Shown piece after piece: positions 7,256 through 64,000 of a DNA stretch of 64,000 nt. How positions within the stretch are numbered: the first letter of the stretch is position 1; the number at the start of each line of letters is the position of its first letter. The notes under the pieces were generated by a model, which made no database searches, was not told where the DNA came from, and saw nothing but the letters and a program-made list of their open reading frames with translations. Location: contig NC_087250.1 in assembly GCF_037042905.1 (NCBI RefSeq), positions 27,406,001 to 27,470,000 of the forward strand, written 5' to 3'. Position numbers and translations under genes: made by a program. The stretch comes from Lytechinus pictus (Eukaryota).

Positions 7256-9223
7256 GGGTGATTGCATACGTGTCGTACGGGACATTTAGAGAACATTTGA
7301 CAGTTTTTTGACAAGAAAAACAAAAAAATATTCCAGTAACTAAAGGTGATCATCAAGTACTACCAGAGTGTTAGAAAAACCAAGAGTTAACATGACTTGA
7401 ATTCACATCCTGTATAATACAGATTTAAAGTAGTAATGCGTCGTACGGACGCAGAAAAGGTGGCTTTTTTAGAAACCTCAAGTTTGTACTCTAAAGTCTG
7501 TGAGTTGGACAGATAATTTTCATAGAAACTGAACTAAAATTGATATTCAATTACCCAAGAACAAACACATCTATGAAAGAAAGCAAAATAATCCTTCATG
7601 AATAAATAAAGCAAATTGCAATTTTCGAGAACATTGTGGGGTACGGGACATTTCTAAATTGAAGCCAAACTTTCTTACTTTATGTCTCTTTGACTTCTTC
7701 AATCATTTTATTTGGCTGATGATAATGATAATCCTATCAAACTAAAGACATTCATTATGTTAGAAACCGCTATTGGCTGAATATTTCTTTCAATTATCAT
7801 AAACAAAAAAATGTGTCGTACGGGACACTTGTGTGTCGTACAGGACACTTCTGCGTCGTACGGGACACTTGTGTGTTGTACAGGCACTTGCGTGTTGTAC
7901 TCGGCAGCCTGAATAAAACAATGATCTTTTTATTAATCAGAAGGGGAGCATTGCCCCTAAATTCTTCGTTTTTAATGAAAAGTCTTTTAATAAGTAGTCA
8001 TTCAGGACAATATAATTAAGTAACCTCAATATATACAATCGGGAGCAATATGTTATCATTTTTTCATGATGGGAAATGTACAAGGGTTCACAGCATTTTT
8101 ACGAGCTGAAAAACTTGAGGTTTTGTGTGAAGTTATATTTAGTGAATTAATTGATGATTTCCAATACACTATTTAAACAATGAATGAATGAAACTCTTTG
8201 TGTAAATTATGGGGCAAAAATGTTATAATTTTTCATATAAAATGTATATACACTAGCGTACCTACGGAGGGGGGGGGGGGCACTCTGCCCCCCCTGACGA
8301 GCCACAACCCATACAAAAGACATATACCTGCCCCCCCCCCCCTGACGAGCTTGAAGACATTTATAGGGTGAATCAATTTTAAAGGTTTTCTTTTCATGCT
8401 CAATGACATAGAAATTAACCTGCTCTGACCAGTGAAAATCACCAGTTTAATTGGAGGGATTCACAAAAGAATACGCCTACATGAAATCAATTAAAATGGT
8501 TAGAATCACCTATTTTATGTTCTATGGAGATAACAAAAGTACTTTTTCAGTTCACTTTACGTCAAATCAATTACTTGAATTAAAATAGGTCTACTATTTA
8601 TAGTTTCTGAATCCAAATCATGTAATTAAATGTAGTATATATTGTGTGTCGTACGGGACATGTCCCGTACGACACAGTGTGTGTCGTACGGGACAACTAT
8701 TAATAGGACGATTATTGACAAATGAAGAACAGTAATTAAATCCTTATGGGATAAATCGATCACCCATGGGTCAAAGATAGAGAAACTGATTTGGTGAAAT
8801 TGCATCATCAAAAATAAAATTGTAAGAAAAACTTTTGCACTTTCATGTGTCGTACGGGACATTGCCAAAAATAGGTTCGGAAAAATCAGGGCTGCCGCTA
8901 TTATGGAACATGAAAATGCTGTAGATATTATTTGGAACATTCAATGATACATTATTCCATTGACCTGCAATATTTTCAGTCTTCTCGTGCTTTGCCAATA
9001 GTTGTTTCAGGCAGTGTTTGTACTTGACTATTTAATCAGCAAAATTATTGAAAATTGAAAATTCCATTTTCCCCCTAAAAAAACTATATCTGACTTCACT
9101 TTTGGTTAAAATTCATTATTTTCATAAAATTTAGGTATCATAGTAAAATATTACACTACTTATGACTTATTGAAAGCATGTTGAAATTTATGATATTTTT
9201 GAAGTTTTAGTGTGGAATCGCCC
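7256..9223. mobile_element. Non-autonomous DNA transposon with GGG...CCC ends (PIF/Harbinger-superfamily-like), 1968 bp, inside the L1 RT
   Basis: Imperfect TIR GGGTGATTGCATAC vs reverse complement GGGCGATTCCACAC; probable AAA TSD; removing it restores DYKILAKALCKRL; about 10 copies of TGTCGTACGGGACA. Confidence 0.8.
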
Positions 9224-10502
9224 AAAAGCACTTTGTAAAAGATTGTATACTGTGTTAGAAAACATAGTCTCCGCAGATCAGACTGGTTATTCAAAACAAC
9301 GTTCCTCTGTACAAAACATCCGCCTTGTTTTAGATACTATTGAATATTGTCACTACAAGAACTCCCCAGGGATTCTAATTTTTCTAGACTTAAAAAAGGC
9401 ATTCGATAACATTAGTCACGAATTCCTTTTTCTGTTACTAGATAGACTGAGGTTTAAAGAAACTTTTAAAGTTTGGGCTAAAACTCTTTTTAACAATGCG
9501 ATAGGGAAGGTAATTAATAATGGTTGGGTCTCCCAAGAATTCAAAATAGAGCAAGGTGTGAGGCAGGGTTGCGCTTTATCAGGTCTCCTCTTTATACTGG
9601 TCACCGAAGTCATGGCAGTGAGTATAAAGCAAAATGCTTACATTAATGGAATTCGAATTCCCTCAGAAAATCCAGTCATGCCAGTTGGTATTGTTCAAGA
9701 AAATGTCGTTATGTCACAATCAGACAATTGGCAGACGACGCTGTTATTTTTGTAAACTCTATAGAGTCGGGAAATTTGGCTTTGAAAGAAGTTGAAACGT
9801 TTGGTCTTTTAGCATGCCCAAAACTAAACTTAATGAAAACAAATGCTATGTCTACCTCTTTCCAAGAAAAGGAACTGGACAATTTAGCATGGACAAACCA
9901 GCCCATAAAATACCTCGGTGTATACATTTCCGCCAAACAAAAAGAATGTGAAAGTTTAAATTGGGATTTTAAAATTGAGAAGGTGAGATCTCTTTTGAGG
10001 GTATGGAAAATGAGAAACCTGATATATTATGGAAAGATAACAATTATAAAAACACTTATTGTTTCTCAATTTGTATACATTGGGACATGTTTACCAATTC
10101 CAAAGAATACTATGACTAAACTTAACAAATTAATTTACAGTTTTCTTTGGGGTTCCAAAAAAGAAAAAGTCAAGAGAGCGGTTGTTACTCGCTCTCCAGC
10201 AAATTGGGGGTTTAGATATGGTAAACCTAAGAACCAAATTTTAATCATTACAATTATCTTGGTTCACAAAATACCTTAAAGGTGACAAGTCACAATGGAG
10301 ACTATTTTTTAAATTCTGGATAAACCTTATCGGAGATGTATCGGAGGTTTTGAGAATGAACTGTTCGAATAAAGATATGCCTTTTTTATGTACGAAGTTC
10401 AAATTACCAGAGTTTTATGTCAACCTACTTATGTACTGGAGTGAACTGAGATACGTTCATTTTAATAACGTTAAAGACGTGTTCGATCAAGTATTATGGT
10501 AC

Positions 10503-11039
10503 CGCATACATTCGTAATTCCGAAGCTTCGTTATTCCGAAGGTTCGGATATTCCGAAGGTTCGTTATTCCGAAGGTTCGTATTTCCGAAGGTTCTTAATT
10601 CCGAAGGTTCGTTAGTCCGAATACGAAATTAGGTTCGTAATTCCGAAGGTTCGTTAGTCCGAAAACGAAGTGAGGTTCGTTAATCCGAAAAAGAAATGAG
10701 GTTCGTAATTCCGAAGGTTCGTTAGTCCGAAAACTAAACCTTATTTCGTTTTCGGACTAACGAAACTTCGGAACAACGAACCTTATTTCGTTTTCGGATT
10801 AATGAACATTCGGAACAACGAACCTTATTTCGTTTTCGGATTATCGAACCTTCGGAATAACGAACCTTCGGAATAACGCCCCAAATGTTCGGATTAACGA
10901 ACCCTTTTACGTTTTCGGATTAACGAACATCGAGGTATAGGTAGTTTGCGTGTTTCGGAATTACGAACCTTCGGAATAAAGAACCTTTGGAATTACGAAC
11001 CTTCGGAATTACGAACCTTCGGAATTACGAAGTGTAACC
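10503..11039. mobile_element. Foldback MITE with 9-bp TSD (Mutator/MuDR-like), arms of ~15-bp TTCGTAATTCCGAAGG-type repeats
   Basis: TSD TTATGGTAC at 10494-10502 and 11040-11048; repeat orientation flips near 10740; removing it restores QVLWYNSNI in L1 ORF2. Confidence 0.88.
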
Positions 11040-12814
11040 TTATGGTACAATAGCAATATTAAACACGGAAATGACCTCTTATATTTTAAAGAGTGGAAAG
11101 CTAACGGGATTGAAAAAGTCAGTGACCTTTTTGAAAATGGGCAGTGGATATCGTGTGACTCCTTACAAAGACGATTGGGCACAAATTCATTGTTAATACA
11201 TTTCAAATTTTCTAAATTGAAAAAGGCATTTCCAAAAGTATGGGTGAGTGAAACAAGAAATACAGTTTACACCAAAGATGAAACAGAAAATGAACCAGAA
11301 ATGTTTGAAATATCATCTGGTGATTTCATTAAAGTTTGTTGCATGAAAGCAAAACATTTTTATTTATTACTAAATGAATCAGAACAAGAGAATCCCTCTG
11401 TTTCAGGGTGGTGGGAGGAAATTTGTCAACTACCAGTAGATTATGAATGGAAGCACGTATTAGATTTTAAGTTGAAACATATCAGAGATAATAAAGTGAG
11501 ACAATTTAATTTCAAATTATTGCACAATATTTTGCCCTTTTAGAAAAAAATCTTTAAAAATGGAAGATCTCGTCAAACATTATTTGCTCATTTTGTAACG
11601 AACCTAAATCATCTATTTACGTTTTGTTAAAATGTCACCAAGTAACTGATTTTTGGAAAAAGGTTCACATTTTAATACTAGATTGGTTTCAAAAAGACAT
11701 TTATTTAGAAGAAAAGAATATTGTAATTGGTTTTAAAATCAGTGAGTCTAAATCTAATTTGATTAACCTATTATTAATTTATGCACAATATGCAGTGTAC
11801 AAAGTATATATGTTAAATTACTTCAAGAATAAATTGTTCAATAGTCAATCAATTTTGGATGGTATTTAAAAATGATTTCAGGAATTATGCTCAGTGGAAA
11901 TAGAAAAATAAGAAAGATGTTTCAGAAGAACTTGAGAAGTTTCTGTTTTAGATACTCTTACCATTTCTGCATCTGTATTTACTCTTTTTTTTCTATACAT
12001 GTTGATTAATTTTGTATACATGTGATTATATTGTTATTTGATTTGATTTTATGAAATAAAGTACCTCAGAAGAGGAAAAGAAAAAAAATATATATATGTG
12101 GATTTATTTCCTTTATGAAAATATGATTAGAATTAGTGGTCTTCAAATGCCGTGTTTTATGTGACTAGGAAATAAAATAATTCACCACGCATTTAAAGCA
12201 CTTTTCTTGCTCGGCAGGGATGGACGAGGCGCATTTTTTTCTGTCTAAAAGGGCGCCAAAATCAGGTCAGGTTTTGGCCCCTCCCTACGAAATCCCTGAT
12301 CTTATTATCATTATTCTATACATGAGGAATTTCGTATAACATTTTTTTACAATGAAAAGAGCCTTTAGTCTTTTTCTCTTTGAACATTTAAATTTCGCTG
12401 TAAAGTATGCTCACTGCATATACTAAATGTTGGCCCTAAACATACAAGACATCTTTTTGACATTGTTTGTCGTTTTCTCTACGCACTATCATAATTTATT
12501 TCCAAAATTCTTTGCAATTTGAGCACTGATCCACGTTTATCATGAGCTAAAAATAAAAACCATACCTCCTAATTTGTGTATACACTGCACCTTTTCGTGT
12601 ATCCGTGTTTAATAATACATTATACAAGGATCTTAATTCAACTAAAGAGAAAAAAAAAGTATTAAATTAAGCGTTGTTTTATCGGTTCACAAAACAAAGC
12701 AAGAAAAATTAAGATTAAATCTGAGAACACTTTCACTGTAAAGGTTTCTGAGAAAGCGAGATAATGTTTAATATATCCTCGTAATTTTTTGTTCAAATGT
12801 TTCTTGAGTTAATT

Positions 12815-12849: not shown

Positions 12850-12879
12850 GTAGGCTACTGTCCCCATTTTCTCTTCGTC

Positions 12880-14541
12880 ATGGCGTCTAAGTTCCCAACA
12901 AAGAAGGGTGGAGAGGTAGAGCTTCGTACAAGGAAAGGTCATGACATGACCTGGTCATGTGACAAGCATGGTGAGCCAATCAAATTTTACTGTAAGAAAC
13001 ACAAAATTCCCATATGTCATCCATGCGCTACCAAAAATCACAGCCAGAAACCATGTGAGCTAGACGACATCGAGGATGTTATCTTCGAAAGGAGAAGACA
13101 GCTAGATGAAAAACGGCCAAAAATACAGGAACTTCAGAAACAAATGGAAGCCCTCAAAGCGAAAATAAAGACTACATCAACGTCTGGAAGTACTCATCTT
13201 CGGAAAATTGACAACAACATTCAAGCTTCATATTACGACAAGATCGAATCTGTTGGAGAAAAGGAGAACAGGATGATTAGGGTTATTAACGAGGAGGCAG
13301 ATGAGGAAATAAGACTAGTAAATGAGAAGAGAGAAAAACGGATCAAAGACTGCAACACCGAGAGAGAAAAGGAGCGACAAATCATCAGAGACCAAAAAGC
13401 AAAACTTTTATCAGATGCAAAAAAAATCAGCGAAGTTGTTTCTAAGAAGATCAAAGATCTTGCTAATAAGAATCAGCATGTAATAAACACTGTAGAGAAC
13501 ATTGAATCAACCATCAAACGTATAAACCAACATGATGAAACATTGGTGAATGAAGCTCCTCAAGTACTTGCATCTATTGATGAAAATTTAAGTTTTAATG
13601 TTCATCAAGATGTTAGCGATTGTCTTGACCGAATACAGAATGAAGTTGAGAGAGTGAAATTTGTAGAGGGGGAAGTAGGTGGAGAATACTATGGTAAAAT
13701 TGATGGGTATATCGGTAAATGGGAACTTGTCAAGTCAATTCACATTCCATCGGTTGTTAATTACCCGTATGTGCATGGTTTAGTCAGTGATGATGAGATA
13801 TGTGTGCGAGACGTAGGTAACAATGTCATGTATATTACAAACATCAACACTCAACACACAGAGAAAGTCATTGATGGAGGTGTGTGGATTACATCATGTG
13901 CGCCCATAGACAGTAACGTAATAGTATGTGGTAAGGAGAGAGATGATCGCACGGGTGACAGGTTGAATGGATGCATCACTCTCTATGACAGACAATGGAA
14001 GGTGATTAGATACATCAGCATACCAGGGAATGGAGACGATTATAATAGTGTGTATGTTGATGTTGACAGGGATGGGATGATCATCGCTGCTCAGTTCTAT
14101 CAGTCTAATATCTACGTCATCAATCCTGCTGATGATAAGATAGTAAACACTATTACGATGCAGGGTAAGGTGGTGTGGGGTGAGATACAAGCCTTGTCAT
14201 CAGGTGATATCGTTGTGAACACAGGTTATAATGAATACACTGTCATCTCACGATCAGGAGAAGAGAAGGCTGTCATACACTGTGATGGGTCGGACTGGCC
14301 ACAGTGTCGCGTTGACAAACTGACAGACACACTCTACATCGCGTACTGGGATGGAGCGCGTAATCCCATCGCAGTTGATCAGGTGTCACGTGATGGTATC
14401 ATCCAGGCAAGGAAGATCGTGGAATACGAGCAATCAGATCGCACTAACTTAATGAGCCCTTGTCTCGTTACTCCTACTGGTAACTTTATAGGGTGTGATG
14501 GAAACAAACTTCTTCTCTACAAGAAGACATTAATCTTGTAA
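12880..14541 (+). CDS. B-box zinc finger / coiled-coil / beta-propeller (NHL-like) protein, TRIM-like with no RING in this exon, 553 aa
   Basis: Intact ORF; B-box CDKHGEPIKFYCKKHKIPICHPCATKNH; long charged helical segment; C-terminal beta-rich repeats (VDVDRDGMIIAA, IYVINPADDKIVNTI); AATAAA near 14810. Confidence 0.88.
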   Translation: MASKFPTKKGGEVELRTRKGHDMTWSCDKHGEPIKFYCKKHKIPICHPCATKNHSQKPCELDDIEDVIFERRRQLDEKRPKIQELQKQMEALKAKIKTTSTSGSTHLRKIDNNIQASYYDKIESVGEKENRMIRVINEEADEEIRLVNEKREKRIKDCNTEREKERQIIRDQKAKLLSDAKKISEVVSKKIKDLANKNQHVINTVENIESTIKRINQHDETLVNEAPQVLASIDENLSFNVHQDVSDCLDRIQNEVERVKFVEGEVGGEYYGKIDGYIGKWELVKSIHIPSVVNYPYVHGLVSDDEICVRDVGNNVMYITNINTQHTEKVIDGGVWITSCAPIDSNVIVCGKERDDRTGDRLNGCITLYDRQWKVIRYISIPGNGDDYNSVYVDVDRDGMIIAAQFYQSNIYVINPADDKIVNTITMQGKVVWGEIQALSSGDIVVNTGYNEYTVISRSGEEKAVIHCDGSDWPQCRVDKLTDTLYIAYWDGARNPIAVDQVSRDGIIQARKIVEYEQSDRTNLMSPCLVTPTGNFIGCDGNKLLLYKKTLIL

Positions 14542-46516: not shown

Positions 46517-48037
46517 TTACAAGGAATAGGAAGAGACGAGCTGTCTCTTCAATAAGACCTTAAAAGATGACAATGTAGTGCATGACATAAAATTATTAGG
46601 TAAATTGTTCCAAATACGGGGACCGTTGTGTCTAAGAGAGTTGAGTAAGGACTGAGACGAAACCTTTGGGTAATGGTATTTTATACATGAGCGGGTATTA
46701 TGGGAATGGATAGATTTATTAAGAGTAAACATTTGACAAATTATTTTAGGTGCAATACTATTATTAACATAAAACATCATTATTGCAATTTGGAATGTAT
46801 ATATATCATAAATCGTAAGTGTTTGTAACCTAAAAAATAAAGGACGAGAGTGAGCTTGAAAATGAGAATTTGTACATATTCTAAGAGCTTTCTTTTGCAG
46901 TTTGTATAAAGATTCTAATTTAGTTTTACCAACTGCTGCCCAGGTAATGGTACAATAATATAAGTATGGTAAAATTAAACAGTTATACAACATAAATAAT
47001 ACATTTTGAGGTAGGGATATACGTAATTTACGGAGGATACCAATGTTTTTAGATATTTTGTTTGCAATATATTGACGATGGTCCTGGAAAGATAAAGTAT
47101 CATCAAGAATTATTCCTAAAAATTTAACTGAAGTACACACATTCAAATTAACATGGTTTATAAGTATTCTAATATCCTTACAATTACATGGGTGGGATTT
47201 TCTATTAAAATATAATACACACGTTTTGTCATTGTTTATGATTAATTCATTAGCATCAAACCATTGTATAACATTTTCTAATTCTCTATTTACCTGTAAT
47301 ATTAATCTATTGAAATCTTTATGACATGCAATTAAGTTGGTATCGTCGGCAAACAGTATAAAACGAAAAAAGGATGAAGAATAGCTCAGATCATTTATAT
47401 AGATCAAGAAAAGGAGAGGACCCAGTATAGAGCCCTGTGGGACTCCACACTGGATCCTCTTTCTATCGGAAACAAAATTATTATAACATGTGAAATGGAA
47501 ACGATTACTCAAATAATTCTTAAACCACTGTAAGGCTACACCACGTATACCAAAAAACTGTAATTTACAGAGGAGAATATCATGGTTGATGACATCAAAC
47601 GCTTTAGATAGATCAAGAAATAAGCCTAATGTATGAACTTTGTTTGTTAATTTATTTTGGGTGTAATCATGAAGGTCAATTAAAGCATGTGCACAGGAGG
47701 ATTGTTTTCTAAAACCGTACTGAGAGTCATCAAGGAGATTATATTTATTTATATGATTAAAAACCCTATTGTAAATCAATTTTTCTAATATCTTAGAAAA
47801 ACAAGGGAGCAAAGTTATAGGGCGATAGTTAGAAAATATATGGGGATCCCCTTTCTTAAATATGGGTATAATTTTTCCTACTTTGAAGTTCATAGGAACC
47901 TTACCAGATAAAAAGGACAGATTACAAATATGTACAATGGGTTTAACAATAAAATGGATAACATGTTTAATAGTATATTGCGTAAGTCCTTCGAAATCTT
48001 GGCTTTTGGAAGAATTTATACATTTAACTATATTTAA
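46517..48037 (-). pseudogene. LINE ORF2 3' part (reverse transcriptase)
   Basis: NYRPITLL, QYGFR, LDLSKAFD, GVPQGSILGPLLFLIYIND, LFADDT, KFLG. Confidence 0.93.
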
Positions 48038-49258
48038 AGTATACATCCAAAGAAAATTCACGAAAGTGATGGTTATAGAAAAATTATATATGAATGGAAA
48101 GGTCTTGTCTTTTTATACACAAATATGTCACTGAAAAGTCTTATTGATGTCGTGGAAATGCAAGAAATGAAATTATTAGAGACCCTTCTCAGCCCCCCAG
48201 CCGCCCCCAGACAGCGATCAAATACAGTCGAGAATAATGACGTCACATGATGATCGACTCACTCAGCCGCTCTCTAGCTCTGTGCAATTCCAAGCCAGCA
48301 GTTCTCTGATAGCTGATTCACCTTCCTGGTCTCTATTTTTCTTCGAATTTACCGTTTTCTTCATGTATTGTGATATCCGAATTCTGTTTTCGACAACTTC
48401 AGACTATAAGGGAACCAGAACTGTGTTATTTTGCCCGGTTTTTATTGAATTGTGAACTGGAAAGATCGATTTTGTCCACTCGACAGTCTTCGTTGTGTTG
48501 CTCTACTAACTATTGAAAAACTCCAAGCTGCACGGTCCCATTCACTTGCTCCCGATGCATGTTGCAGGTTACGCTGTTTGATCCAGTCAAAAGTCAAGGT
48601 AAGCATGTTTGGAAACTGTACTTGTTCTGACGATGCATCCAGGTCAGATGACAGATACAGATCTGATATAAGTTTAGAATCATGCATTTTGGCGTATACT
48701 ATTAAAATTAAAAAGTCTTTATTTTAGAAATAATGTTTTTGCACAATTCCAGCAGATTTTTTCTTCAGATTTCTAAAACTGGTCAGGACTCAGGCAGGCG
48801 ATTAAATTATTTAGGAGCACTGGTATGGACCATGGCTGAAAATCTGCTGTTTCAGAGGAATGTTTAAGTTTTTATTATACACAGAATTATATCACCATGA
48901 TGCCGATGTCATGAAGCCAGACAAATTTTCAGCAGTGATTACCCTGGCCAAAATCACTCACACGTATTGCGAGGTTAGTATTAGTATACTAACCTCGCAC
49001 CACGAACCGCGTTTGGCAGTGGATTTCTAACTAGTGGGTCGCGCGTGCTGGGATCTCACTTCTTGGGTCCACAACATACGACTTCTATGGCTTGAATTTT
49101 CTGTGCGAGGCGGCATGTAATGAACCCTTGGGTGGGCCAAAATTAGAGTCTGGTGTTTCTTTCTGATTAGAGTGTTGCTGCATATATGCATGCGTAATGC
49201 CTTCAACAATGAAGATAAATGCAATCTTTGTAATGACACAGAGACTCAGAGAGCACCG

Positions 49259-51124: not shown

Positions 51125-51816
51125 ATTGCCCTACTGGGAAGGGATTTTTAAGATATATGAAATAAAGTCCGCTCGCCGCTATTGCCTAATAATGCTTCGG
51201 CAATTCAACTGCAATTTCAGTCATTTCGCGATGGATATTGCCGTGTTTTTTTTGTGGTTCCTGACTTTGCTACTTAATGAAATTTCATAATTTTTGTTCA
51301 GTCATAAAGAAGAATGTCTATGCTTTATATTGATTATAATATTAATGTGACGCAAGTGTGATTTCTACGTGAAAATATGCTTTGTTTATTCACATATATT
51401 TCTTGAAAAAAAAAAAAAATTCTAAGCTAAATATCGGTTACCAAAATACGTTAAATGTGCACTTTTTTTCACTGTTCAGTAAACTCAAACTTTTATCTAT
51501 ATAACAAGACCAATATTAAGAGCAATAAACAATTTTAAGAGCAAAAAACGCTGATTGGAAAGATCGTTTCCAATGGGCTGCTGTCAGCTCAGCTGCTCTG
51601 CTCATTGTGTGACGTCACTCAGCTGGAGCTCGCAAGATGACCGGTGGAAGGCAGAAATATGGCATGAAAATAAATCATTTTTGAGAGCTGATTTCTGCAA
51701 ACTCTGATCACTATTTTGAAAAGTGAAGTTATATATCTGATTAGTAATACTTCCCCTTTACAATGATGACCACATAAAGTCATTATAAAATACTTTTGAT
51801 TCTTCGGTTGTATACT

Positions 51817-53413
51817 TTAAAACCTCTGATTCATTGGTTGGGTGAAAAAATATGGAATTATTGCAAGGGACTTTTAAAAATGAACTAAAATGGCACTTAG
51901 GGTTTTTAATATGTTGAGATTTAAGTTTGACAGCAATGCTAGAAAAATATAAATTAAATTCATTTACTATCGATTGAGGATCTGTTAACTTTCTTTCTTC
52001 TTTAAAAAAATAACTAGGATATTGACATTTTCTTTTCTTTCCTAATAGATTATTAATAACTTCCCAGGTTTTAGACATCTTGTTTCTATTCTTTTGTAAT
52101 AAATCACTAAAATAGGTTTTCCTCGCAGACTGTAAAATGGAGTTCAATTTATTTCTATAATGTTTATATTTATTTTCACTGATATTATTTCTTTTTTTGC
52201 AAAATATTTTATATAATCTATGCCTTTTATTTATACATTTTAGAAGTGAAGGCGTAACCCAAGGTTTTCGTGGGGTATTCTTTCTCTTTATTTTACGGGG
52301 AGCAAAATTATGTTTATACGTAGTTTTAAATAAATTTATAAAGGAGTTATATGCATTATCTACATCACATGCTGAGAATACTTCGTTCCATTCTAAAGTA
52401 GCTAAATCTTTCTTAAATGAACTTAAACTTGATGGATCTGTAAGTTTTACATAAAATAAAGACGTTGGTTCTTTGTATAATTTAATAGAAAGGTTGGTTA
52501 TTTGGAAAATGGGTAAATGATCAGTTATTCCACTATAAAAAACACCAGAATGAATATCTTTGTCGACTACATTTGTGAATATGTTATCAATCAATGTTAC
52601 AGACCGTTTACAAATTCTTGTTGGTTTGTCAATTAATGGACGAAGAGAATTATTATACATAATGTTTACAAAATCATTAATGTGTTGACAAGTATTATAT
52701 TTAAGAAGATCTACATTATAATCACCCATTAAAAAAATAGATTTATTTTCTGTGGATATTGTTCCAAGACAACTATTGAAATTTTCATTAAATTCAAGAA
52801 TGGGTTTATTAGGGTTTCTATATATAATACCAACAATAATATTTTTTGAACTATCCGAAATAATTTCAATAAAAAGAGATTCACAAATGGTTTCTGGTAA
52901 AGATATATCCTCTCTTACTTTAACATTAAGTGAATTATTAACCAAAAGTGCAACACCCCCACCTTTCCTACCTTGTCTGTCATTATGATAAAAAGTATAA
53001 TTATCTCTATTAAATAATAACGGGATATTTTCATTAATCCAGGTTTCACTAAAACCATATATAGAAAATTTTAACTTAATTTGATTAAGAAATTGATCAA
53101 TAGCGAAATAATTTTTGTTAAGACTTCTGGAATTAAAATGGAGAATACTAAAGTTATGTTTGTCATCAGTGGTAAAATCTGAATTATCATTGAAATCAAT
53201 AGGGAGCCAGTACTTAACAGGTTTATCAAATGTAAAAAAATTATTATCTGGATCAATATCATCAAGTATTCCACTCTCATCAGAATCAATATATGTCGAG
53301 AACATATCAAAATTATCATTATCAACGGTATCATATTGCACTTCAGAAAATATACATTTAAACTCTTCATCATTTACTTCATTGAAAGGAAAAATATATT
53401 GGAGAATATCCAT
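51817..53413 (-). pseudogene. LINE ORF2 5' part (AP endonuclease + linker)
   Basis: HFNSRSL, SETW, GGGVA, MGDYN, LIDNIF, TDHLPI, KPWVT. Confidence 0.93.
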
Positions 53414-53808
53414 ACAGTTGTATTTGCATGTTCACATTCACACTTCAATCAACATTCAAAGCATACACAGCAAAAATAAAAATAACAATTAGGAAATCAA
53501 ATATAACATAAAAAGTAAACATTAATATACAACAAGTAGGCATAGAAATATCAGAGTAACGTACAAATATATAAAGTGACAAAAATACAAGCAGATGAAA
53601 CATGTAGGTCAATAACCTTGGATGTATTATATAATAAAAGAAGTTATAGATTTACAAAAATATGACATGATTAAATGGTGACACTATATTCTCAGAAGAA
53701 TATACATGACTAATCAGGCGACTTCAGAAAGAAAAACTTCTACAACCATTTCAACGGTATGCAAAAAAGTACAAATATGTTCTTCAGCGTTCTTATGTAT
53801 TCGAAAGA

Positions 53809-54545
53809 TTATATATGATCAATGTCTTTCACAGAGTGTATCACTCTCTTCAGCGATTTGTTGTCTGAAGTTTTGACCGCTACAAGTATGCGTCCATCCA
53901 TCGACCAAGCCGATTGGATCTTACTTTCAGATTTTCTGCAAGCTCGTTGGGCTTCCCACAGAAGTGATCTGTTAGTAACAGTCAAGTCCTCAAAGATGCT
54001 GAAGCCAGTATTGCTTTCTTTTAGTTTCTTCTTATTTTGTAGCAGTAGTCTTCGCAGTCGGTATGAAATGAGTTTAACAATAATTGCACGCGGTTTCCTT
54101 GGCAACCCTTCTGGTGGTCCCATACGCCGGCGAACTCGATGACATCTGTCAATATCCTCCTCCTTGAGATTGACTCCAAGATGTTTCCTGGCGATCTCAC
54201 GTACCGTCTCAGTTCCTTTTCTTGTTCAGGGACTCCAAAGATGCGTACACAGTTTCTTCGGGAATACTGTTCCTGATCATTTAATTGGTGCTGTAACTTC
54301 ACATTTCTTTCCTCACAGGTTTGTCGCTGCTTCTGAAGATGCTTCAAATCATGCTCAATGTTTTCAATTTTACTTTGAAGATCCATGATGACACCATCCT
54401 GTTTATCCAGTCTAAGAATCAAAGATTGGAGTTTAACATCCATTGCTTCACAGATGGTTCTTTTAATAGTTGATAGAACTTCATCATCCATTAGAACCTC
54501 CTTTACTTGGCTCTTTAGTATGGCATCAGAGCGTGTTTCAGGCAT
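53809..54545 (-). pseudogene. LINE ORF1 (coiled coil + L1-ORF1-like RRM region), one frameshift near 54215
   Basis: QEQYSRRNCVRIFGVPE, then KPRAIIVKL, IFEDLT and SAWSMDGRI in a second frame. Confidence 0.85.
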
Positions 54546-54961
54546 TGTGTGGAGAGGTGGTTCCAAGTGTTTAATCCGATGCAATACAAAAGATAATCCA
54601 GGATGAAAGGGTAATGTCACAAAAGGTCAGTGATGAAGTACAGTGACCCCTCAAATCAATGCTGGATTAGGTCCCAGGTAAGCTTAGGCTTGAAGCAAAG
54701 ATAAACCCTACTCCAAAAGGTATATGCTGGGACTGGGTTGAAGATAACTCACAGAAGCAGGTAAGAAAATTCAGCAAATAAATGTTACAAAGTCCGCTTA
54801 TATGTCACCAAAGTACATCCAGGTCATGACTTGGTTGACTAAGATCTTCCTAAAGGTGAGAATGCATCACACTTCCATATACAAAGTGTAAAAAGGTAGA
54901 TATTCAGGTAGATATTCTGATGTGATATAGAGCTGATATAGAGCTAGTGTGCATGCACACT

Positions 54962-55087
<126 letters not shown>

Positions 55088-56808
55088 GAAGGAAGGAAGA
55101 AAAAAAAAGGAAAGAAAAATAGGGGTACTAACTACGAAGAAGGTTACGACTTTTAGAGTAAAGACAACCAGTTGGCAAATCCAAGTCCATGTAGCCAGGC
55201 TTAGAGCCCTACTAGTCAGCAAAATACAAAGGACAAAACAGATGGAGCTATAATAACACACAAAGTAAGCCCCCGGTCCTCCCCCAATATAATTGAGTTT
55301 GCAAATTATACCACAATTATTGACGATTTAACAAACACATTAGTTTTGTAAAATTAGAAGCAAGACTAGGTAAATAAATATGGGGTGGGATGAATTTTCA
55401 AGGTTTAAATTGAATAATCAAAGCCAAAGTATAGTTGGCAAATTATAAAGTGGGCCTATTAAAGTGGCAGAACACTATACGCTCTACCAGTCAACAAAGT
55501 GATATACAAGTACTGCCCCGTTTCAGATCTGAAAATAACAGAACTAAAGACTTAAAAAACTGGTAACTCTTCAGTTGGCAAATTCATGAAGACAAGTCTA
55601 CAACTTGTAGACTTGTCTACAAGTTTGCAGTTGGCAAAAAACACAAAAATGTTCTAAGTTATTTTTACTAAATTCTGTCGCCGAAGATTTTTTTTTAATT
55701 TATGGTGTCAGAATGTGCTTGGGGTGGGGATGGGTGGGAGTGGGGGCAGGTTGGAGTTGCATCATTCCTGGTGCTCTTATTGTCTGACTAATGAGATATA
55801 TAGTCCTGTTGTATTTTAAGTCCATATTAAGATTATGCACCAAATTATCTCCTCGCACTTCAAGTTATTATTGTTTTATGTAGTGCCATATGCTTTTTTC
55901 ATGACTATATACTTAAAGTGATTGCCCCCTTTTAAGGCCTTAATAAAACATTTCCAGTCTGTGCTTACGTCCGCATTGGTGTGGACCGATATAGATACAG
56001 GGCTGGTGTTAAATCAACACTGGCGTTTTTGCAGTGCACGAATTCCTAAAGACAGTCCTTAAAATGTCCCTTTTTCTGATCTAATTATAACAAATGGCTT
56101 GTCATTTGGGCACTTTTTGGAGTTTTAAAAGTGAAATACGAAGGCTTTCGTGCACACTTTTGGTGAATTTTGTGATAATTTTCACTAGAAAAATAAGTTT
56201 TTAAAAATTTAGGGGTCATCATGCCCCCGTATTGTCGTTGCGAGCATTTTGGGGCCAGGGTGAAATCGCCCCAAACGCCTCAAACAGACATTCCAAAATG
56301 TATTTGAAGTGCATTATTAGAACTGAAACTTATCTCTACACCAGGAAAAATTAACTTAACAAAATAAGCAACAAGAAATATTTATAAAAAGTAGAAGGGC
56401 CTGTACAAGTACACTGATATTTCACTCTCTCAGCTCATATGCACTTGATCGACTTCCATCGAAGATTCGGGCTAAATTCCGCCCGCCACTTCCGGGGACC
56501 AACCAACGTAGTATTTCGATGAAGAGCACTCCGTCGATTCACCGGTTGTCCCTACGATACACGCGCGCCTATGGGGATTGTGAACTGTAGGAAAAATCGT
56601 ATAAAATTACACTTTTTGATATTTCTACGAAGACGAAGTTATATAGAAAATGAAGAATATTACAATCAGACCATATCCCTAGAAAATTGCTTCAAGAAAT
56701 GTCATTATGAAGAGGAAATGGACAAAAATTTGTGAAGAAAAATCACGAAAAAGGAAATCGCATCATGAATATTGATATCATGGGCGGTCCCACATTTGCA
56801 TGTTATAG

Positions 56809-57879
56809 CGAGTTTTCCATTATTTAATAAATAATGGCATTATTTAATAAATAATGGTTATTTGTATATAAATAATGATTATTTGTATATAATGGCAAAC
56901 TGTAAAAATTGTTTATAAATAATGATTATTTATAAATAATGGGATATTGAAACTAAATTATTATTTATAAATAATGAAGTAGATATTTCATTATTTAACA
57001 AATAATCTTTATTTATAAATAATGGAAAACTCGAACATTAAATAATGATTATTTATAAATAATGAGAATAATGGTGCACTCGAAAAAATTATTTATAAAT
57101 AATGAAGTAGACGTTTTCATTATTTAACAAATAATCATTATTTATAAATAATGGAAAACTCAACAAATTATTTATAATTAAAGAAATGTGCACTGGCATT
57201 GATAATAAATAATAATTATTTATAAATAATAGAAAACTTATTTATAAATAACGGAAAAACGAATTGCAATTATTTATAAATAATTTAGTATGTAGTGTCA
57301 TTATTTATAAATAATGAAGTATGTAGTGTCATTATTTATAAATAATATAAAAACAAATAATCATTATTTATAAATAATGAAAAACAAATAATCATTGTTT
57401 ATAAATAATGAAAAACAAATAATCATTATTTATAAATAATGAAAAACAAATAATCATTATTTATAAATAATGAAAAACAAATAATCATTATTTGTAAATA
57501 ATGAAAAACAAATAATCATTATTGATAAATAATGAAAAACAAATAATCATTATTTACAAATAATGAAAAACAAATAATCATTATTTGTAAATAATGAAAA
57601 ACAAATAATCATTATTTATAAATAATGAAAAACAAATAATCATTATTTATAAATGATAAAAAACAAATAATTATTATTTATAAATAATGGAATGTCGAAC
57701 TATTATTATTTACAAATATTACTTGGAATTATATATAAATAATTAGAAATGATATTTTATATAATAGTAGTTATTTACAAATAAAATGTAAATTATATAT
57801 AAATAATAGTTATTATTTAATAAATAGTGATTATATAACAAATAATTGTTCTATATAATATTGGTACATTCGGCGCTCA
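56809..57879. repeat. AT-rich array of palindromic ATTATTTATAAATAAT, with a ~31-bp tandem unit at 57330-57690
   Basis: Unit TAATGAAAAACAAATAATCATTATTTATAAA repeated about 10 times; block flanked by TATAG at 56804-56808 and 57880-57884. Confidence 0.8.
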
Positions 57880-58573
57880 TATAGTGGTTATTACATGAAT
57901 GGAACAAAAAATTGATTCCATTGACTCGAAATCCTCCGGAGCACTGCCACTGGAATTGGTGTCAAACGATGCTATTATATCTGCGAGCGTGCGCCGGAGG
58001 TTCGTGCGTATGAAAGAAAGAGCGTGATTGGTTGTAAGCTAGTCAGTCCGCAAATCACGCTAGTAGTGCTGTATTGTGATTGGTTATTTTCACCGAGGAA
58101 ATGAGAAAATCTCGGCAGTTTTTGTATGATATTTTTCATTTTTTTTAGAAAACGTGCAAGTGTTGTCTCTGACGAGTTCGACATATGATTTTAGAATTAT
58201 TTTTTACACATGTCGACAAAGTTGTAGGTAGATACAAAATTTGAGGCACGAAACGGAAGAAAAAAGCACCTCGGCCCGCGGTCTATATTTTGTTCACCTG
58301 AAGGTTTTATTCAGCTTGGGTCGGCTGTATTTGGCAGTTAATGATACGCGTACCGCCTTGACCGAACTGTGCGAAGTCTGTGTGGTCTGTGTGGTAGAGA
58401 TAGGCCGGGCCGTAAACACTACTTCTTGGGGGTGCATAAATTGCCCTAATTAAGTTTATTATTTGTGACAAAATAGAATCACTGTAATTTGTTTATGATA
58501 TTAACTGTGGTACGACATAAGGATAACGGAGCAGCTTCTGTTTATGTTAAGATATAGACATATAGGAAGTTTT

Positions 58574-58708
58574 CTTTCCTCCTATGTGTTACAACGTCGG
58601 AAAGTTAATTTCTTTTCTTTATCTACCTCAGGTGACAAATACTGAAAAATAACAACAATGACAAAAGATTGAACATGTTTGGTCAGAGCTGGGCAATGAT
58701 TATTAGCT
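58574..58708 (-). repeat. Split direct repeat B2 (135 bp)
   Basis: Identical by eye to 60396-60530. Confidence 0.95.
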
Positions 58709-58831
58709 CGCTGTTTATTCAATAGACTCATATTTGTTCAGGATGATACGAACATTGCAAAGTATGCATAAGCAAAAACACAGCCAAGAAAATTAACTCG
58801 ACAACAATGATAAAGGATTGGGATTTGAAGC

Positions 58832-59808
58832 TTAAATCCCGAGGGATTGTGAAGGAAGAAGATTTGACGTTGCGTCTGATTCTATGTATGTGTCCCTGGC
58901 TTTGTCTGACTTCCAACGGCCATGTCGTGAAATCAGAAAGGGAGAAACTCGATTGTTACTAGCAGATGAAGCTCCACCCGACCGGAGACTGTGCAAACCG
59001 AACTTAGAGACGTCGGGAACAAAGGGCTTCAACGCCTCCAGGACAATCTCGCGACTTCTGGTGTAACTTAGGCCGTGAGAAGTGGCGACTAGACCGCGTT
59101 TGGAACGAGCAAGCCTGCGAATCACTGGTAGGTGAGAATGAGGAGGATCGCCTAAAGCTGCGAAATATCGCTCGGCTATAATGACGGGACAGGTCGGGTT
59201 GGATGTCCTAGCAATGGTAACATCTCTGCCTTGGCGGAATTGATCGGTTTTAGAAGAGGGTAAGTGTAGAACTAATCTGTCATGATGAAGAGTGCAGTCC
59301 TTCCTTCTTTTCCTGCTAAGGTCGTCGAAGCGTAGGAATCCAGCATAAGAAATGAAGCATATAAACAAAATGCGTAGATCAGCTAAAGATGCATTGAGCT
59401 GACCGTGTGATGCGCGAAGATGGGACAGGATTTCTGGTGTAACAGGCTCCTTACGACAAACAGAGTCCGGTTATACCCCTGCACTGCTGTTTTTACCATA
59501 GGGTCATCTGTGGGTGAAGGAAGGCCTGCGAGACTGTGCGCCCATTTCACTGACGCGACAAGGGAATCTGCTAGAGTCTTGGCTCCGCTAACGGAAGACA
59601 GGTGGGAAAGGTATAGACAGAGGTGGTACGCTTGGACTGGAAATGTGGGTAGAGATTTGGAGCTCGCCCACTGGACCCATTTGTCCCAACGGGATTTGTA
59701 TTTTGATGTGGTAGATGAAGCTTTGGCAGACATGAGTAGGGATGGAAGAACATCAGCGGCTAGGCTGCGTAGATGCGGATCGGAGATGGAGTCTTGCTGG
59801 CGGACCAT
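58832..59808 (-). pseudogene. Tyrosine recombinase, frameshift near 59460
   Basis: N-terminal STTSKYKSRWDKW; catalytic set AGFLRFDDL (R), SKTDQ (K), HSLRSGGAS (HxxR), HGRW, RDTY (Y). Confidence 0.93.
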
Positions 59809-60267
59809 GTTTCTGAAAGTTAGCTCATGAGAGCAAGAGAATTAGACAAAATTAATAAAAAGAAATCAGTCGAAAGACTGACATACATACTGTAACAGTA
59901 AGCAGAGTGAGAAATTTCAAGAAACAAAGTAATGAGTAGAACCAAAAGCTGCTTAATACGTACTCTTTCAAAAGTAGGTATCCAAAAGACCTAGATTTAA
60001 TCAAAAGAATAACAATGCGACAGGAAACGAATAAGGAGGATGCAAGGCGCCCAGTACCTGACTAGTGTACGAGACACTAGTACTCGGAGGCCACGAAAAA
60101 CCCCCATATTAGTTCATGGAGGAAACGTGGTTGCGTCCCAGGGTACCGAGCGAGGGCGCACTCCCTTGCTCCTTGCTCCTGAATACTAAGTAATGCAAGT
60201 TTGACCAGGGGAGGGGGGGGGGGGGTGAGGGGAAACCCGTAAGAACAAAAAAAGGGGGGTGGGAAGT

Positions 60268-60530
60268 CGAGCTAATAATGCTGAGCCGAGAATGGAAAAG
60301 ATATGCGTGTTAGCGCAACGAGAAAACTCGAAATACGCAGTTACGTAAGAAACACAAAAGGAACACCTTGCGTTGGATACCGAAAAGAAATTCCACTTTC
60401 CTCCTATGTGTTACAACGTCGGAAAGTTAATTTCTTTTCTTTATCTACCTCAGGTGACAAATACTGAAAAATAACAACAATGACAAAAGATTGAACATGT
60501 TTGGTCAGAGCTGGGCAATGATTATTAGCT
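60268..60530 (-). repeat. Internal B1-A2 junction repeat
   Basis: A2 60268-60398 and B1 60396-60530 overlap by CTT. Confidence 0.95.
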
Positions 60531-60899
60531 ATCGAGAAACGCAAAAGAAGGCATAACAGATAGGGTAAAAAGTTGCCAGGAACTTAAATTGACCTAAGCA
60601 AGGTGTGATTACAATGCAAGCAAGGGCTGCACATCACCTAGGCATGCAAATCTGCCTGTATATCACAAAACGGGGGGGGGGGGGGGTGACTAGGCACACA
60701 AATTGGCCTGGATAGAATAAATAGAGATAATGATAGGTACGCAAATCAGCCTCGATAGAACAAAATAATAATATTATTGGCCCGCAAATCGGCCTGTATC
60801 GTACAAAAGAAGGAACGAAGGGCGCACAAATCGGCCTGTATAATGCAAAAAGCTAATATCGTAATATGAGTACTTGATCATGATAAGGACTCGTTTGCT

Positions 60900-62880
60900 T
60901 CAAATACAATTTGGACAATAACCCAAGTCAGCAGAACAAAAACCGGTGTTTGAAGTTCTAGGCGAGCGCTTAAAATCGTATCGTAATGCTAGGGTAAAAA
61001 ATGACGGTTGCTCGCAAAACACATCTTTGTCTTTGTGCAAGGAGGAGGGAGTAAATGAAGCATTTAATATCCTCCAATCGTGAATGTGCGCATCAAAATG
61101 GATGCCGTCGGGGCAAATGAAAGGCCAGAAATGGGAGGTAGGCCAACGGGGAACTATCAGCGTGTCGATAGCGCTACAAGCAGCCATGCGCTTTATTACT
61201 TGAATAATGAACGATACTGGCGGGCAGAGGTAATTGTTTTCAAATTCCCAATTTTGACAAAATGCGTCCACGGCGGAAACGCCCCGGCAAAAAAAATCTT
61301 GCGTTAAAATTGGGAAGTTTGGCATTGTGGGGGGAGGCAAACCTATCGACTGTAAGTGGCCCCCACAAGTTGTCTACTTGTGAGAAAGAATGATCGTCGA
61401 TAGACCAGTCGTCATAATCACGATATTTACTGATCTTGTCTGCTAAAATATTTTCTCTCCTGGGTAACCATTCCGGTGAAATAACAATATCGTGCAACTG
61501 ACAGTAAGAGAAAATATCAAGCGCGATACGATGAAGATCGGACTTAACACTACCATAGTTAATGATTCGAGGCACGTTGGAATTATCAGAGAACCACTTG
61601 ATTTTTTGGTTAAAGCAATGGCTGGAAAATGCTTTGAGTGAGCGATAAACAGCGGTCAATTCGCGCCAAGTGGAACTCTGAAGTTTCTCAGAAGGTGACC
61701 ACAAACTGTGGACGCGCAGGTGTGAATGATCTTGGACATGAGCACCAAAACCAAGATCGCTGGCGTCAGAAAATATTTGCATGGTCGGTACAAGGCGATA
61801 TGAAAGTGCAAATCCATTAAGCGAAAAAATGTTGGCAGACCAAAAAACCAGTTCATTGAGCACAGATTCGGAAATAAAAATAAAATCGGACCATGAAGAC
61901 CGAGATTCGATTGCGCGATAAGTTGCGCGCGTCATCAATCTCGCCACCGGACCGAGAGCTAGATTTATTGAAATGACGTGTCCGGCGAATGAGGCCAATT
62001 TTCTCCCTGGGACAGGAGCAGCAGCCTTAGAAAATGAGACAAGCTCGTCAGTGCTCTGAACTAAGTTTATTAGTTTCGACTGAGGTACAAAAATCGAGCG
62101 TGATGGTGAATCGATGAGGAATCCTAAGTAAAGAATTCTACTAGATGGGTTCCAAGCAAGCACACTTTGCTTCATTGGGAACGAAACCGCTGCGCCGGAT
62201 AGTTTGCCTTACTACTGCCAAATTTGCTAAAGCGGATTCATAAGACGTTGAAATGATGAGGCCGTCATCAATATACATGTAAGCAATTATACCATGTGAA
62301 CGCCAGTGGTACACTAGTGGCCTTGTCAATTTAGTGAACAAATAACATGCGTTGTTGAGCCCAAAAGGCAGTACAGTGAATACATAATAACGTACTACGG
62401 AATCAGAATGGGTCCAAGAAAACCCTAAAAATTGCTGGTGGGGGGGAAATATGTCGACATGGTGATAGCCGGACTTTAAATCAAATGAGAAATAAAATTG
62501 CTCGGAACCAAGCACTTGCGCAATATGAGTGAGATCTTCATATTTAAATTTAGATTGAGCAACGAACTGATTTGTGTGACGTAAATCCAAAACTAGGCAT
62601 ATTTTTTTTGCCTTCGGCAACGGTTAGAGGGTTACAGCAATAAGGGCGTTGCTTTACTTCTACTGCACATCTGTTTTGTATCAATTCAGAGATGGCACTT
62701 TCAACAAAATCTGGGTGATCCAAACTGGACTTGTTATTCTTGCTATAAAATGGGGGAGGTACTTTATCAAAGGGGATTTTATAACCGTACTCGATAATAT
62801 CGCAAACAAACTTGGAAGCTTTTAATTCACTTTTCCAGAATGCTAAACATTCTCTCAATTTACCTTGCACGCCTGAAGGC
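60900..62880 (-). pseudogene. DIRS/PAT pol: RT, RNase H and Dam-methyltransferase-like domain, three frameshifts
   Basis: LVLDLR, FDLKSGYHH, LPFGL, YIDD; FSDAS, STWREL, FSDN, NILADKISK; VDRFAS, VDAFCQNW, NYLCPP. Confidence 0.93.
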
Positions 62881-63698
62881 GGGTCGAGAGATGAGGCGGG
62901 TGGGGCACTAGAAGGGGGCCTTTGATGGCTGTTGCTGGTTGACGGCACTTAATTCTAGCGGCTCGCAGAGCGGGGCAGTTGGGGCGGACGTGACCGGCGA
63001 TGCCACACTGGAAGCAGATGCGGGTTTCAGGACGGTAGGGGTTGAAGCGACGAAAAGTCCCAGGCATAATGCGAGGAGGTACAGAAGAGCGGGGGGCCCG
63101 GAAGGGGGGCTGAATCTTTGACTTTTTGGCTGTTTCGGCCCTTTTGGTGGCTGCAGCCTTCTCCGCCTGAAAATAAATCGCATATGAAAAAATTAACAAT
63201 GCATGAAGAAATGCACAGTGGTATAAAACGCAGTCAAATATTGCTAAAATTCGTATGAAAAATTTGATATATTTTGTTAAAAATAAAATATTCTGGAATT
63301 AAAAACATATTACCTTTCTGAGACGTTTTTCGTCATCGGAATTCTCCGCGAGGTCGTCTGCGATATACTCTTTGACTGTGGCCCAGCCCAAACGGGAGCG
63401 GTCTGCCAGGCGAATCAGTTTCTGCCTCTGAGTAAGGAGGGCGGATGCCTCGAGTAGACGCTCCTTTGCGGCCTCGATATCGATATCCTCCAGCGAATGT
63501 AGAGCGTCGTCAATGCACTAAAAAAAATTTTTGGGCGTGGTCGTATTGCTGCTTGTTTCCCTCACTCTTGAAGGAGGGGGAGCTTTCGGGCTTGGCAGAT
63601 TTCCGGGAGGCAGAGTCCACCTTTCGTTGAAGAGCCTGGATGGCTTGTAAAATGTTGTGAGACGTGGCTGGGCCGGGCGTGGTCTCGTCCACGTCCAT
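62855..63698 (-). pseudogene. DIRS/PAT gag-like ORF1 in two exons (63698-63314 with one frameshift; 63166-62855)
   Basis: FKSEGNKQQY, RQKLIRLADRSRLGWATVKEYIADDLAENSDDEKRLRK|AEKAAA, zinc knuckle CFQCGIAGHVRPNC. Confidence 0.85.
63167..63313 (-). other. Predicted 147-nt GT-AG spliceosomal intron in gag
   Basis: AAG|GTAATA ... ATTTATTTTCAG|GCG; AT-rich against GC-rich exons; in-frame TAA inside; phase-0 join. Confidence 0.8.
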
Positions 63699-63771
63699 GC
63701 CGCTATCTTGACGGGAAAAATACGGTAGCAGGACTCGTAGAGAAAATCTGGAGCTGGTTTCCAAACGTGCG

Positions 63772-63902
63772 CGAGCTAATAATGCTGAGCCGAGAATGGA
63801 AAAGATATGCGTGTTAGCGCAACGAGAAAACTCGAAATACGCAGTTACGTAAGAAACACAAAAGGAACACCTTGCGTTGGATACCGAAAAGAAATTCCAC
63901 TT
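63772..63902 (-). repeat. Split direct repeat A1 (131 bp)
   Basis: Identical by eye to 60268-60398. Confidence 0.95.
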
Positions 63903-64000
63903 CTGATGACCAAAAAGTATAAATATTATTCTCTGATTCTGTACTCCCGAGTTCAGGTTCAGTTGTCTTAGCCACGCGTTGTTTACTACTGCGCGCACGG

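Follow-up and report, generated by a model that had tools for sequence, protein, structure and literature searches.

The sea urchin Lytechinus pictus carries, on the minus strand of the 64,000-nucleotide (nt) stretch analyzed here (contig NC_087250.1, positions 27,406,001 to 27,470,000; hereafter the window), a Pat1-like tyrosine recombinase (YR) retrotransposon at 58574-63902 whose gag gene is interrupted by a spliceosomal intron (intron 1) and whose recombinase is joined to an upstream leader by removal of a second, alternative intron (intron 2). Intron 1 interrupts two overlapping reading frames at once, and intron 2 contains the internal repeats B1 and A2 (B1A2). We consider it probable that splicing sorts the transcript running from repeat A1 at one end of the element to repeat B2 at the other: doubly spliced RNA could not be copied, and retention of intron 1 would furnish a leaky, untranslated genomic RNA.

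Two introns and an overlapping leader frame

Intron 1 occupies 63167-63313 (minus strand; 147 nt, a multiple of three), with AAG preceding GTAATA at its 5' end and TTTTCAG preceding GCG at its 3' end. An earlier note, made from the sequence of the window alone, had proposed here an AT-rich segment with these splice signals, an in-frame stop and a phase-0 join, and all of this was borne out on the minus strand. The GC content is 0.23, compared with 0.55 and 0.61 for 200 nt on either side, and branch-point candidates lie at 63196 and 63237. Excision joins the gag coding part of exon 1 (63314-63698, minus strand, ATG at 63698) to exon 2 (62864-63166, minus strand), which encodes the Gag C terminus with a CX2CX4HX4C zinc knuckle and ends the gag frame at 62910-62908; across the joint the protein reads DLAENSDDEKRLRK|AEKAAA. 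There are 23 GT..AG deletions within 62950-63517 that leave the gag frame open, and the 147-nt one alone recreates the junction of the homologues; all eight RefSeq proteins examined read LRK|AEKAA across it. Its GT..AG ends, pyrimidine tract, composition contrast and precise removal confirm that 63167-63313 is a spliceosomal (U2-type) intron. A nested transposon or introner was rejected, as we found no second copy of the segment in the window or in 80 relative loci, no terminal inverted repeat (4/15 matches) and, apart from the AG common to both splice sites, no target-site duplication.

Four of 11 listed sequencing runs were compared, X1 and X5 as contigs and X9 and X10 as raw RNA reads. Contigs that skip exactly the 147 nt of intron 1 were present at depths of 15 (X5) and 28.1 (X1), alongside contigs that retain it, with one difference from the window, at depths of 7.2 (X5) and 12.9 (X1). 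The joint between 63314 and 63166 was therefore seen as an exact contig skip in two of the four runs; the raw stranded reads from X9 and X10 (∼6% sampled, 44 and 54 reads placed, largely poly-G artefacts) did not cover gag and were uninformative. These contig joints, from runs that we take to be RNA, together with the RefSeq models uphold the earlier claim of a spliceosomal intron inside a retrotransposon gag gene.

A second reading frame crosses the same site. The pol/YR leader begins in the +1 frame at an ATG at 63336, within the SDDEK codons of gag, runs for 23 nt to the donor (63314-63336, minus strand), is split there in phase 2, and continues through exon 2, overlapping gag. The same ATG opens the RefSeq proteins P0125, P0133, P0134 and P0135, and in an intron-less relative (L001/P0076) the first Met falls at the equivalent position; the leader measures 106 codons up to a V-x-G-x-L motif in the pol of L001/P0076 and 105 codons in P0125. 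Intron 1 interrupts both gag and this leader, and its retention stops both frames, gag at the fifth intron codon (TAA, 63301-63299) and pol at the first (63312-63310). Among intron-less relatives, in a set of 43 loci with open gag (of 80) that form 29 families, the +1 frame was open from the intron site to the knuckle in 15/29 families, compared with 1/29 for the +2 frame and 1/29 and 0/29 for an upstream control. A +1 ATG lay at most 36 nt upstream in 13/29 families, a count to which Asp codons also contribute by chance. We rejected a pol-frame donor within the V-x-G-x-L motif as a general feature, with GT present in only 13/25 loci. The leader (window 63166-62953, +1 frame) contains a hydrophobic run, with similar runs in P0076, P0081, P0114 and P0115, which may be a by-product of the frame overlap.

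Intron 2 (59813-62863, minus strand) begins at the donor AAG|GTAAAT, in phase 1 of the pol frame, and takes out the regions for reverse transcriptase (RT), RNase H (RH) and methyltransferase (MT) together with B1A2. It has two acceptors, a CAG at 59813 (in frame, 3051 nt) and a GAG at 59824 (out of frame, 3040 nt), which lead into exon 3 (58832-59812, minus strand), where the tyrosine recombinase is encoded, with an internal Met at 59733 and two indels in the window copy. Run X1 contains a second GT-AG skip, of 3040 nt from 62863 to 59824 (joint 59823/62864), at a depth of 45.3. RefSeq holds three 437-amino acid (aa) proteins of one structure, isoform X1 among them, that start at 63336 and span both junction 1 and a junction reaching the CAG acceptor at 59813; in isoform X3 (P0135) the acceptor is the GAG at 59824, as in run X1, and P0136 also has junction 2. 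Since RefSeq has both acceptors at one locus, a mutated 59813 acceptor in the copy behind run X1 need not be invoked. This leader-YR fusion, with its start at 63336 and its phase-1 joint, had been predicted from the sequence before the matching RefSeq proteins turned up, and LOC135153592 and LOC129276827 each list a gag isoform X2 together with a leader-YR fusion isoform X1. In relatives, the most pyrimidine-rich acceptor before the YR was in phase 1 in 16/17 loci, and 11/17 had no in-frame Met upstream of the YR; these 17 are the loci that aligned from the first YR residue, out of 28 with a YR match. Depths in run X1 were alike for the retained intron (12.9), RT (15.9) and the region before the YR (17.5), as against 28.1 and 45.3 for the two junctions, a pattern expected if the two introns were largely spliced together, with unspliced and doubly spliced molecules as the two populations.

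The recombinase is encoded on the same strand as gag and pol, and P0125 has the motifs LRF, HSLR, HGRW and TY, which we take to be those of an R-H-R-H-Y-type recombinase. The homologue P0131 carries PF00589, and P0126 is named xerD homolog; Pfam gave no YR match for the window pieces or for P0003.

Conservation and apparent loss of intron 1 among relatives

Intron 1 was recognized in relatives from unspliced open reading frame (ORF) calls that read through the site as K|V, and their donors, which share descent, are deduced from translations. The residue after the site could be mapped in 148 of the 150 representatives listed and was Ala in 124, Ser in 12, Val in eight and another residue in four. 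In a tree of 70 rows (≥52% identity, or Val next), which cannot order gains against losses, 9/9 rows reading through as V-[IL]-[CR] fell within one 26-row clade (97/88) that holds the family of the window, and none fell among the other 44; earlier trees were poorly resolved, with P0071 on a long branch, and were not used. Gene models of Amphiura, Patiria and Strongylocentrotus belong to the clade. Conservation of the three opening codons of the intron, V-[IL]-[CR], extends across lineages that are only ∼55-87% identical in the 60 residues upstream. The same intron start in nine diverged relatives, with no target-site duplication, disposes of the possibilities, raised beforehand, that the segment is unique to this copy or is a separate nested element.

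Position +5 of a donor is usually G. The window intron has T there, and the second residue of the read-through was Ile or Leu in 10/12 intron-bearing lineages, which implies the same T; of the two exceptions, one (P0295) points to G and the other (P0151) is ambiguous. We infer that intron 1 is an old intron with a weak donor.

Copies with the intron and copies that lack it precisely, the two states that the earlier note had thought worth surveying, both appear to occur among relatives, judging from protein calls. In P0152 and four cluster mates (five ENA contigs, 20-114 kb) the gag ORF runs into the intron, while P0142 (six contigs, the longest 39.7 kb), P0286 and P0288 are intron-less and near-identical to the P0152 cluster over the first 118 residues. 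Further pairs with and without the intron on ENA contigs are P0295 versus P0140/P0294 and P0004 versus P0067. Judged by these calls, three families appear to hold both intron-bearing and precisely intron-less copies. Read-through proteins from the same source suggest that the ENA proteins are unspliced calls on DNA, and if so, singly spliced RNA would have been retrotransposed fairly often. The proposal that the unspliced RNA is the replicated genome thus seems overstated as an exclusive claim, and spliced RNA is probably copied too.

Other relatives depart from this pattern. In P0071 and P0072 the intron is of 3n+2 length and stop-free, so that its retention fuses the gag N terminus to the pol frame. 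The gag ORF of P0039, P0040, P0041, P0043, P0049 and P0056 becomes low-complexity ∼17-20 codons past the site, possibly reflecting an additional intron position. P0151, a Patiria 'nephrin-like' RefSeq model that opens with gag and YR pieces of the intron-bearing clade, is probably a chimeric annotation. A pattern scan of IMG/VR gave 337 matches, none of which was confirmed.

Splicing as a probable means of sorting RNA, and other readings

In the arrangement that we favor, each degree of splicing would give the RNA a different fate. Translated from the normal starts, fully unspliced RNA would yield no full Gag, Pol or YR, with pol running into a stop in intron codon one and gag in codon five, and by keeping B1A2 it would be reverse-transcribable and could serve as template. 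Once intron 1 alone has been removed, the RNA encodes full Gag and would also give Pol from the +1 ATG at 63336; it retains B1A2, and its copying would yield intron-less copies. When both introns are gone, the RNA encodes Gag along with either YR carrying a 107-aa leader (acceptor 59813) or a 128-aa dead end (acceptor 59824), products documented by gene models and a single contig joint; without B1A2 it should fail to form the circle junction and so be excluded from copying. By analogy with the requirement of DIRS-1 for its internal complementary region (ICR), and under the repeat-annealing model cited in PMC6681497, RNA without B1A2 should be unable to replicate. Intron 1 would then bias RNA between message and genome as a leaky filter, its weak donor presumably under selection, and intron 2 would act as a strict one. 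The earlier idea of a splice-controlled switch holds to the extent that spliced and retained forms coexist; it is incomplete, as the leader frame and the B1A2-removing intron 2 are also involved.

Several observations weigh against this reading. The X1 and X5 contigs are assigned to RNA by their uneven, additive depths and GT-AG skips, and carried-over DNA or pre-mRNA of the host could account for the retained form. Run X5 has no junction 2 and instead a continuous YR-side contig (58712-60193, depth 50). The RefSeq proteins are automated gene models, and none of the 57 hits is an L. pictus pol model. RefSeq YR models of 301-303 aa start at the internal Met at 59733, so YR may also be expressed by way of A2; P0138, an older model, connects gag with YR through a different donor, which argues against a single route. 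Intron 1 was present in 0/77 distant metagenome loci carrying the motif, out of 80 examined as the best of 310 (a selection favoring uninterrupted genes), and so is dispensable in most of the group, and in the P0142/P0152 family the intron-less form appears common (three ENA proteins on eight contigs versus five intron-bearing contigs). Bearing instead on the earlier proposal, the window copy is defective: a gag frameshift near 63521, upstream of intron 1, makes full Gag impossible from this copy. The claim that spliced RNA makes full Gag therefore holds for the family, zinc knuckle included, and not for the copy in which it was made.

A stricter scheme, in which only fully unspliced RNA replicates and the choice between gag message and genome falls to intron 1 by itself, seems to us quite improbable. 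Intron 1 has been kept in at least 10 diverged lineages, and most RT-bearing molecules in run X1 seem to retain it (12.9 versus 15.9), as such a scheme would have it; yet near-identical gag genes with and without the intron lie on long ENA contigs (the P0152 cluster versus P0142/P0286/P0288, up to 40 kb, and the other pairs), and RNA minus intron 1 alone still includes B1A2. Intron 1 might instead persist passively with no sorting role, the RT copying any B1A2-bearing RNA, which is often nuclear and unspliced, and loss being slow or balanced by an ordinary intron benefit (expression, export or escape from silencing). The many relatives that manage without the intron (0/77 loci) would be explained, as would the mixing of states within the clade, where eight changes on the tree were matched by 162/500 shuffles as low, and the absence of a stable RNA fold in intron 1 (z +0.87); Penelope-like elements, too, keep introns for reasons unknown (PMC8557442). 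We nevertheless regard this as unlikely, given that V-[IL]-[CR] is conserved, that the donor departs from consensus in 10/12 lineages and that the intron sits where it blocks both frames.

Retention could also be the route to Pol, with unspliced RNA giving Pol by Gag-N/Pol read-through or from an intronic ATG at 63183 and spliced RNA giving Gag and YR. The pol-frame ATG at 63183 does exist in the window, no RefSeq pol isoform was among the 57 hits, and the P0071 and P0072 introns do let gag run into the pol frame. The introns of the window and of P0004, however, contain early stops, several ATGs lie upstream of 63183, the peptide from 63183 is unmatched in the two closest pol proteins (themselves called from later starts), and P0071 and P0072 were spotted through their fusion, an ascertainment effect; we consider the reading very improbable indeed. 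A Gag/Pol toggle with the intronic ATG as pol start was our initial idea, was dropped on the same evidence and survives only as this minor rival.

Splicing that removes the internal repeats may extend beyond the sorting scheme proposed for the window family. The gag of L050 is split by a canonical phase-1 GT-AG intron (∼666-1105) enclosing A2, and P0045 diverges at the same motif. In 11 loci the gag zinc knuckle is interrupted after C-F/Y-K by an intron-like insert (L024:3786, L026:693-1189, L040:3443, L041:1014, L045:1637, L063:1680-2070, L066:887-1274, L073:1325, L074:729, L075:1332-1740 and L076:574), which holds B1 and A2 in L045, L063 and L075 and at least A2 in L026, L040 and L066. These inserts end in YAG in 6/8 aligned and begin with A or T, never G, in 11/11, and their donors fit the consensus except at +1; they would represent either noncanonical splicing or a U1-binding site with a different role. 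We suggest tentatively, and with real doubt, that in animal Pat1-like elements as a group splicing is the expression system, a start-less YR being joined to an upstream leader and B1A2 being always intronic, which would make the recombinase message uncopyable; weakened donors (a +5-mismatched GT here, A- or T-starting in the knuckle-split lineage, 11/11 loci) would have evolved more than once, sparing genomic RNA.

Element structure, related systems and significance

The element measures 5329 nt and has the layout A1-gag-RT/RH/MT-B1A2-YR-B2. Repeat A1 (63772-63902, 131 nt) has an AAG core at its start and is 100% identical to A2 (60268-60398); repeat B2 (58574-58708, 135 nt) has an AAG core at its end and is 100% identical to B1 (60396-60530); all lie on the minus strand. 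B1 and A2 together cover 60268-60530 and overlap by AAG, the same three bases found at both element ends, as would be expected for recombinase insertion. The B1A2 junction can fold into a hairpin (window 60372-60452; −28 kcal/mol, z −6.2, equalled by 0/200 shuffles), a candidate recombinase site or priming hairpin; hairpins also occur at this junction in L063:1805-1875 (z −3.4) and L026:900-975 (z −1.9). An AATAAA (58714-58719, minus strand) lies immediately upstream of B2 and outside it, and none is present at the corresponding site before B1, so that transcripts would be able to pass B1. Five diverged 30-nt units spaced ∼43 nt apart (60641-60850, minus strand) separate the pol stop from B1. 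Searches of Rfam with window 58000-64000 and with 10 relative loci were without matches.

The pol body (60900-62870, minus strand) has several frameshifts in the window copy. It matched RVT_1 (E 1.6e-18) and, below the curated cutoff, RNase H (E 3e-4); at the expected position after RNase H, a Dam-like MT gave E values of 0.096 in the window, 0.0056 in P0069 and 0.018 in P0076, all below cutoff, as was zf-CCHC for the complete Gag zinc finger (E 0.0049). With its split direct repeats and this weak MT signal, the element is Pat1-like (PAT, order DIRS) with the nematode-form layout by the definitions excerpted from PMC4157794. Ngaro was rejected, as B1A2 lies upstream rather than downstream of the YR and a weak MT signal is present, and DIRS1-like was rejected since the repeats are direct and not inverted terminal repeats with an ICR. 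The closest named relatives are L. pictus RefSeq proteins (97-99% identity over 68 residues). Relative to the X1 and X5 contigs, the window copy has ∼1% substitutions and nine indel sites (63521, 62949, 62603, 62153, 61289, 60807, 60764, 59797 and 59462), and where contig ends come loose at the termini of A and B, further insertion flanks are seen.

Around the element, an AT-rich 31-nt minisatellite array (56800-57860) adjoins it. Fragments of ORF1/ORF2 of long interspersed nuclear element type lie at 51758-54626, 46517-48112 and 4506-11543 (a weak endonuclease match for 51758-53431, the others by eye), and an intronless 563-codon ORF at 12850-14541 has a B-box/coiled-coil (TRIM-like) appearance, again labeled by eye.

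Goodwin and Poulter in 2004 reportedly noted for YR retrotransposons both spliceosomal introns and long ORFs that overlap, so part of the present findings may already be in print. PAT of Panagrellus redivivus resembles our element in having direct repeats that are split, a zinc finger in Gag, a YR of like orientation and internal repeats between MT and YR, and it has an MT domain, of which the signal here is weak; that layout is given for nematodes, with introns unmentioned in the excerpted text (PMC4157794), whereas here the family that has it is of sea-urchin type, carries two introns and makes its leader-YR fusion by splicing. SpPat1 of Strongylocentrotus purpuratus is likewise a sea-urchin Pat1-like element with a zinc finger and split repeats, but in this echinoderm form the internal repeats are placed otherwise (same excerpts), and the lineages with B1A2 inside a gag insert may represent it. 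In BARE1 and Arabidopsis EVD (Ty1/Copia), splicing yields a Gag-only subgenomic RNA and sets the translated RNA pool apart from the replicated one (excerpts of PMC3735527 and PMC5580714); here the Gag and Pol-leader frames both depend on splicing, YR on a further splice, and integration is by YR. Penelope-like elements also keep introns through retrotransposition, but belong to another RT clade with another endonuclease, and the intron whose function was studied is a 5' UTR intron that interrupts no overlapping coding frames (excerpts of PMC8557442). DIRS-1 of Dictyostelium is a YR retrotransposon that needs its internal repeat-complementary region, and its marker introns were removed on transposition, with spliced and unspliced cDNA both observed; it differs in having inverted repeats and an ICR, and the excerpted text of PMC7192593 mentions no natural intron. 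Our literature search, outside which lay the primary SpPat1 literature and key reviews, did not find the two-intron scheme: the word 'intron' is absent from PMC6681497, PMC3266345, PMC3783388 and PMC4157794, and the excerpts of PMC13465315, PMC9341512, PMC5890265, PMC3212892, PMC12477816, PMC8226300 and PMC9940879 do not describe it.

These findings bear on two open questions, how elements of the DIRS order express three overlapping proteins and how introns persist in retroelements. The family offers testable specifics, namely a pol start within gag codons and a recombinase made by excising the replication junction, and nature supplies copies with and without the intron for comparison. Among the sea-urchin genes that RefSeq labels 'uncharacterized', several with isoforms X1-X3 are transposon transcripts.
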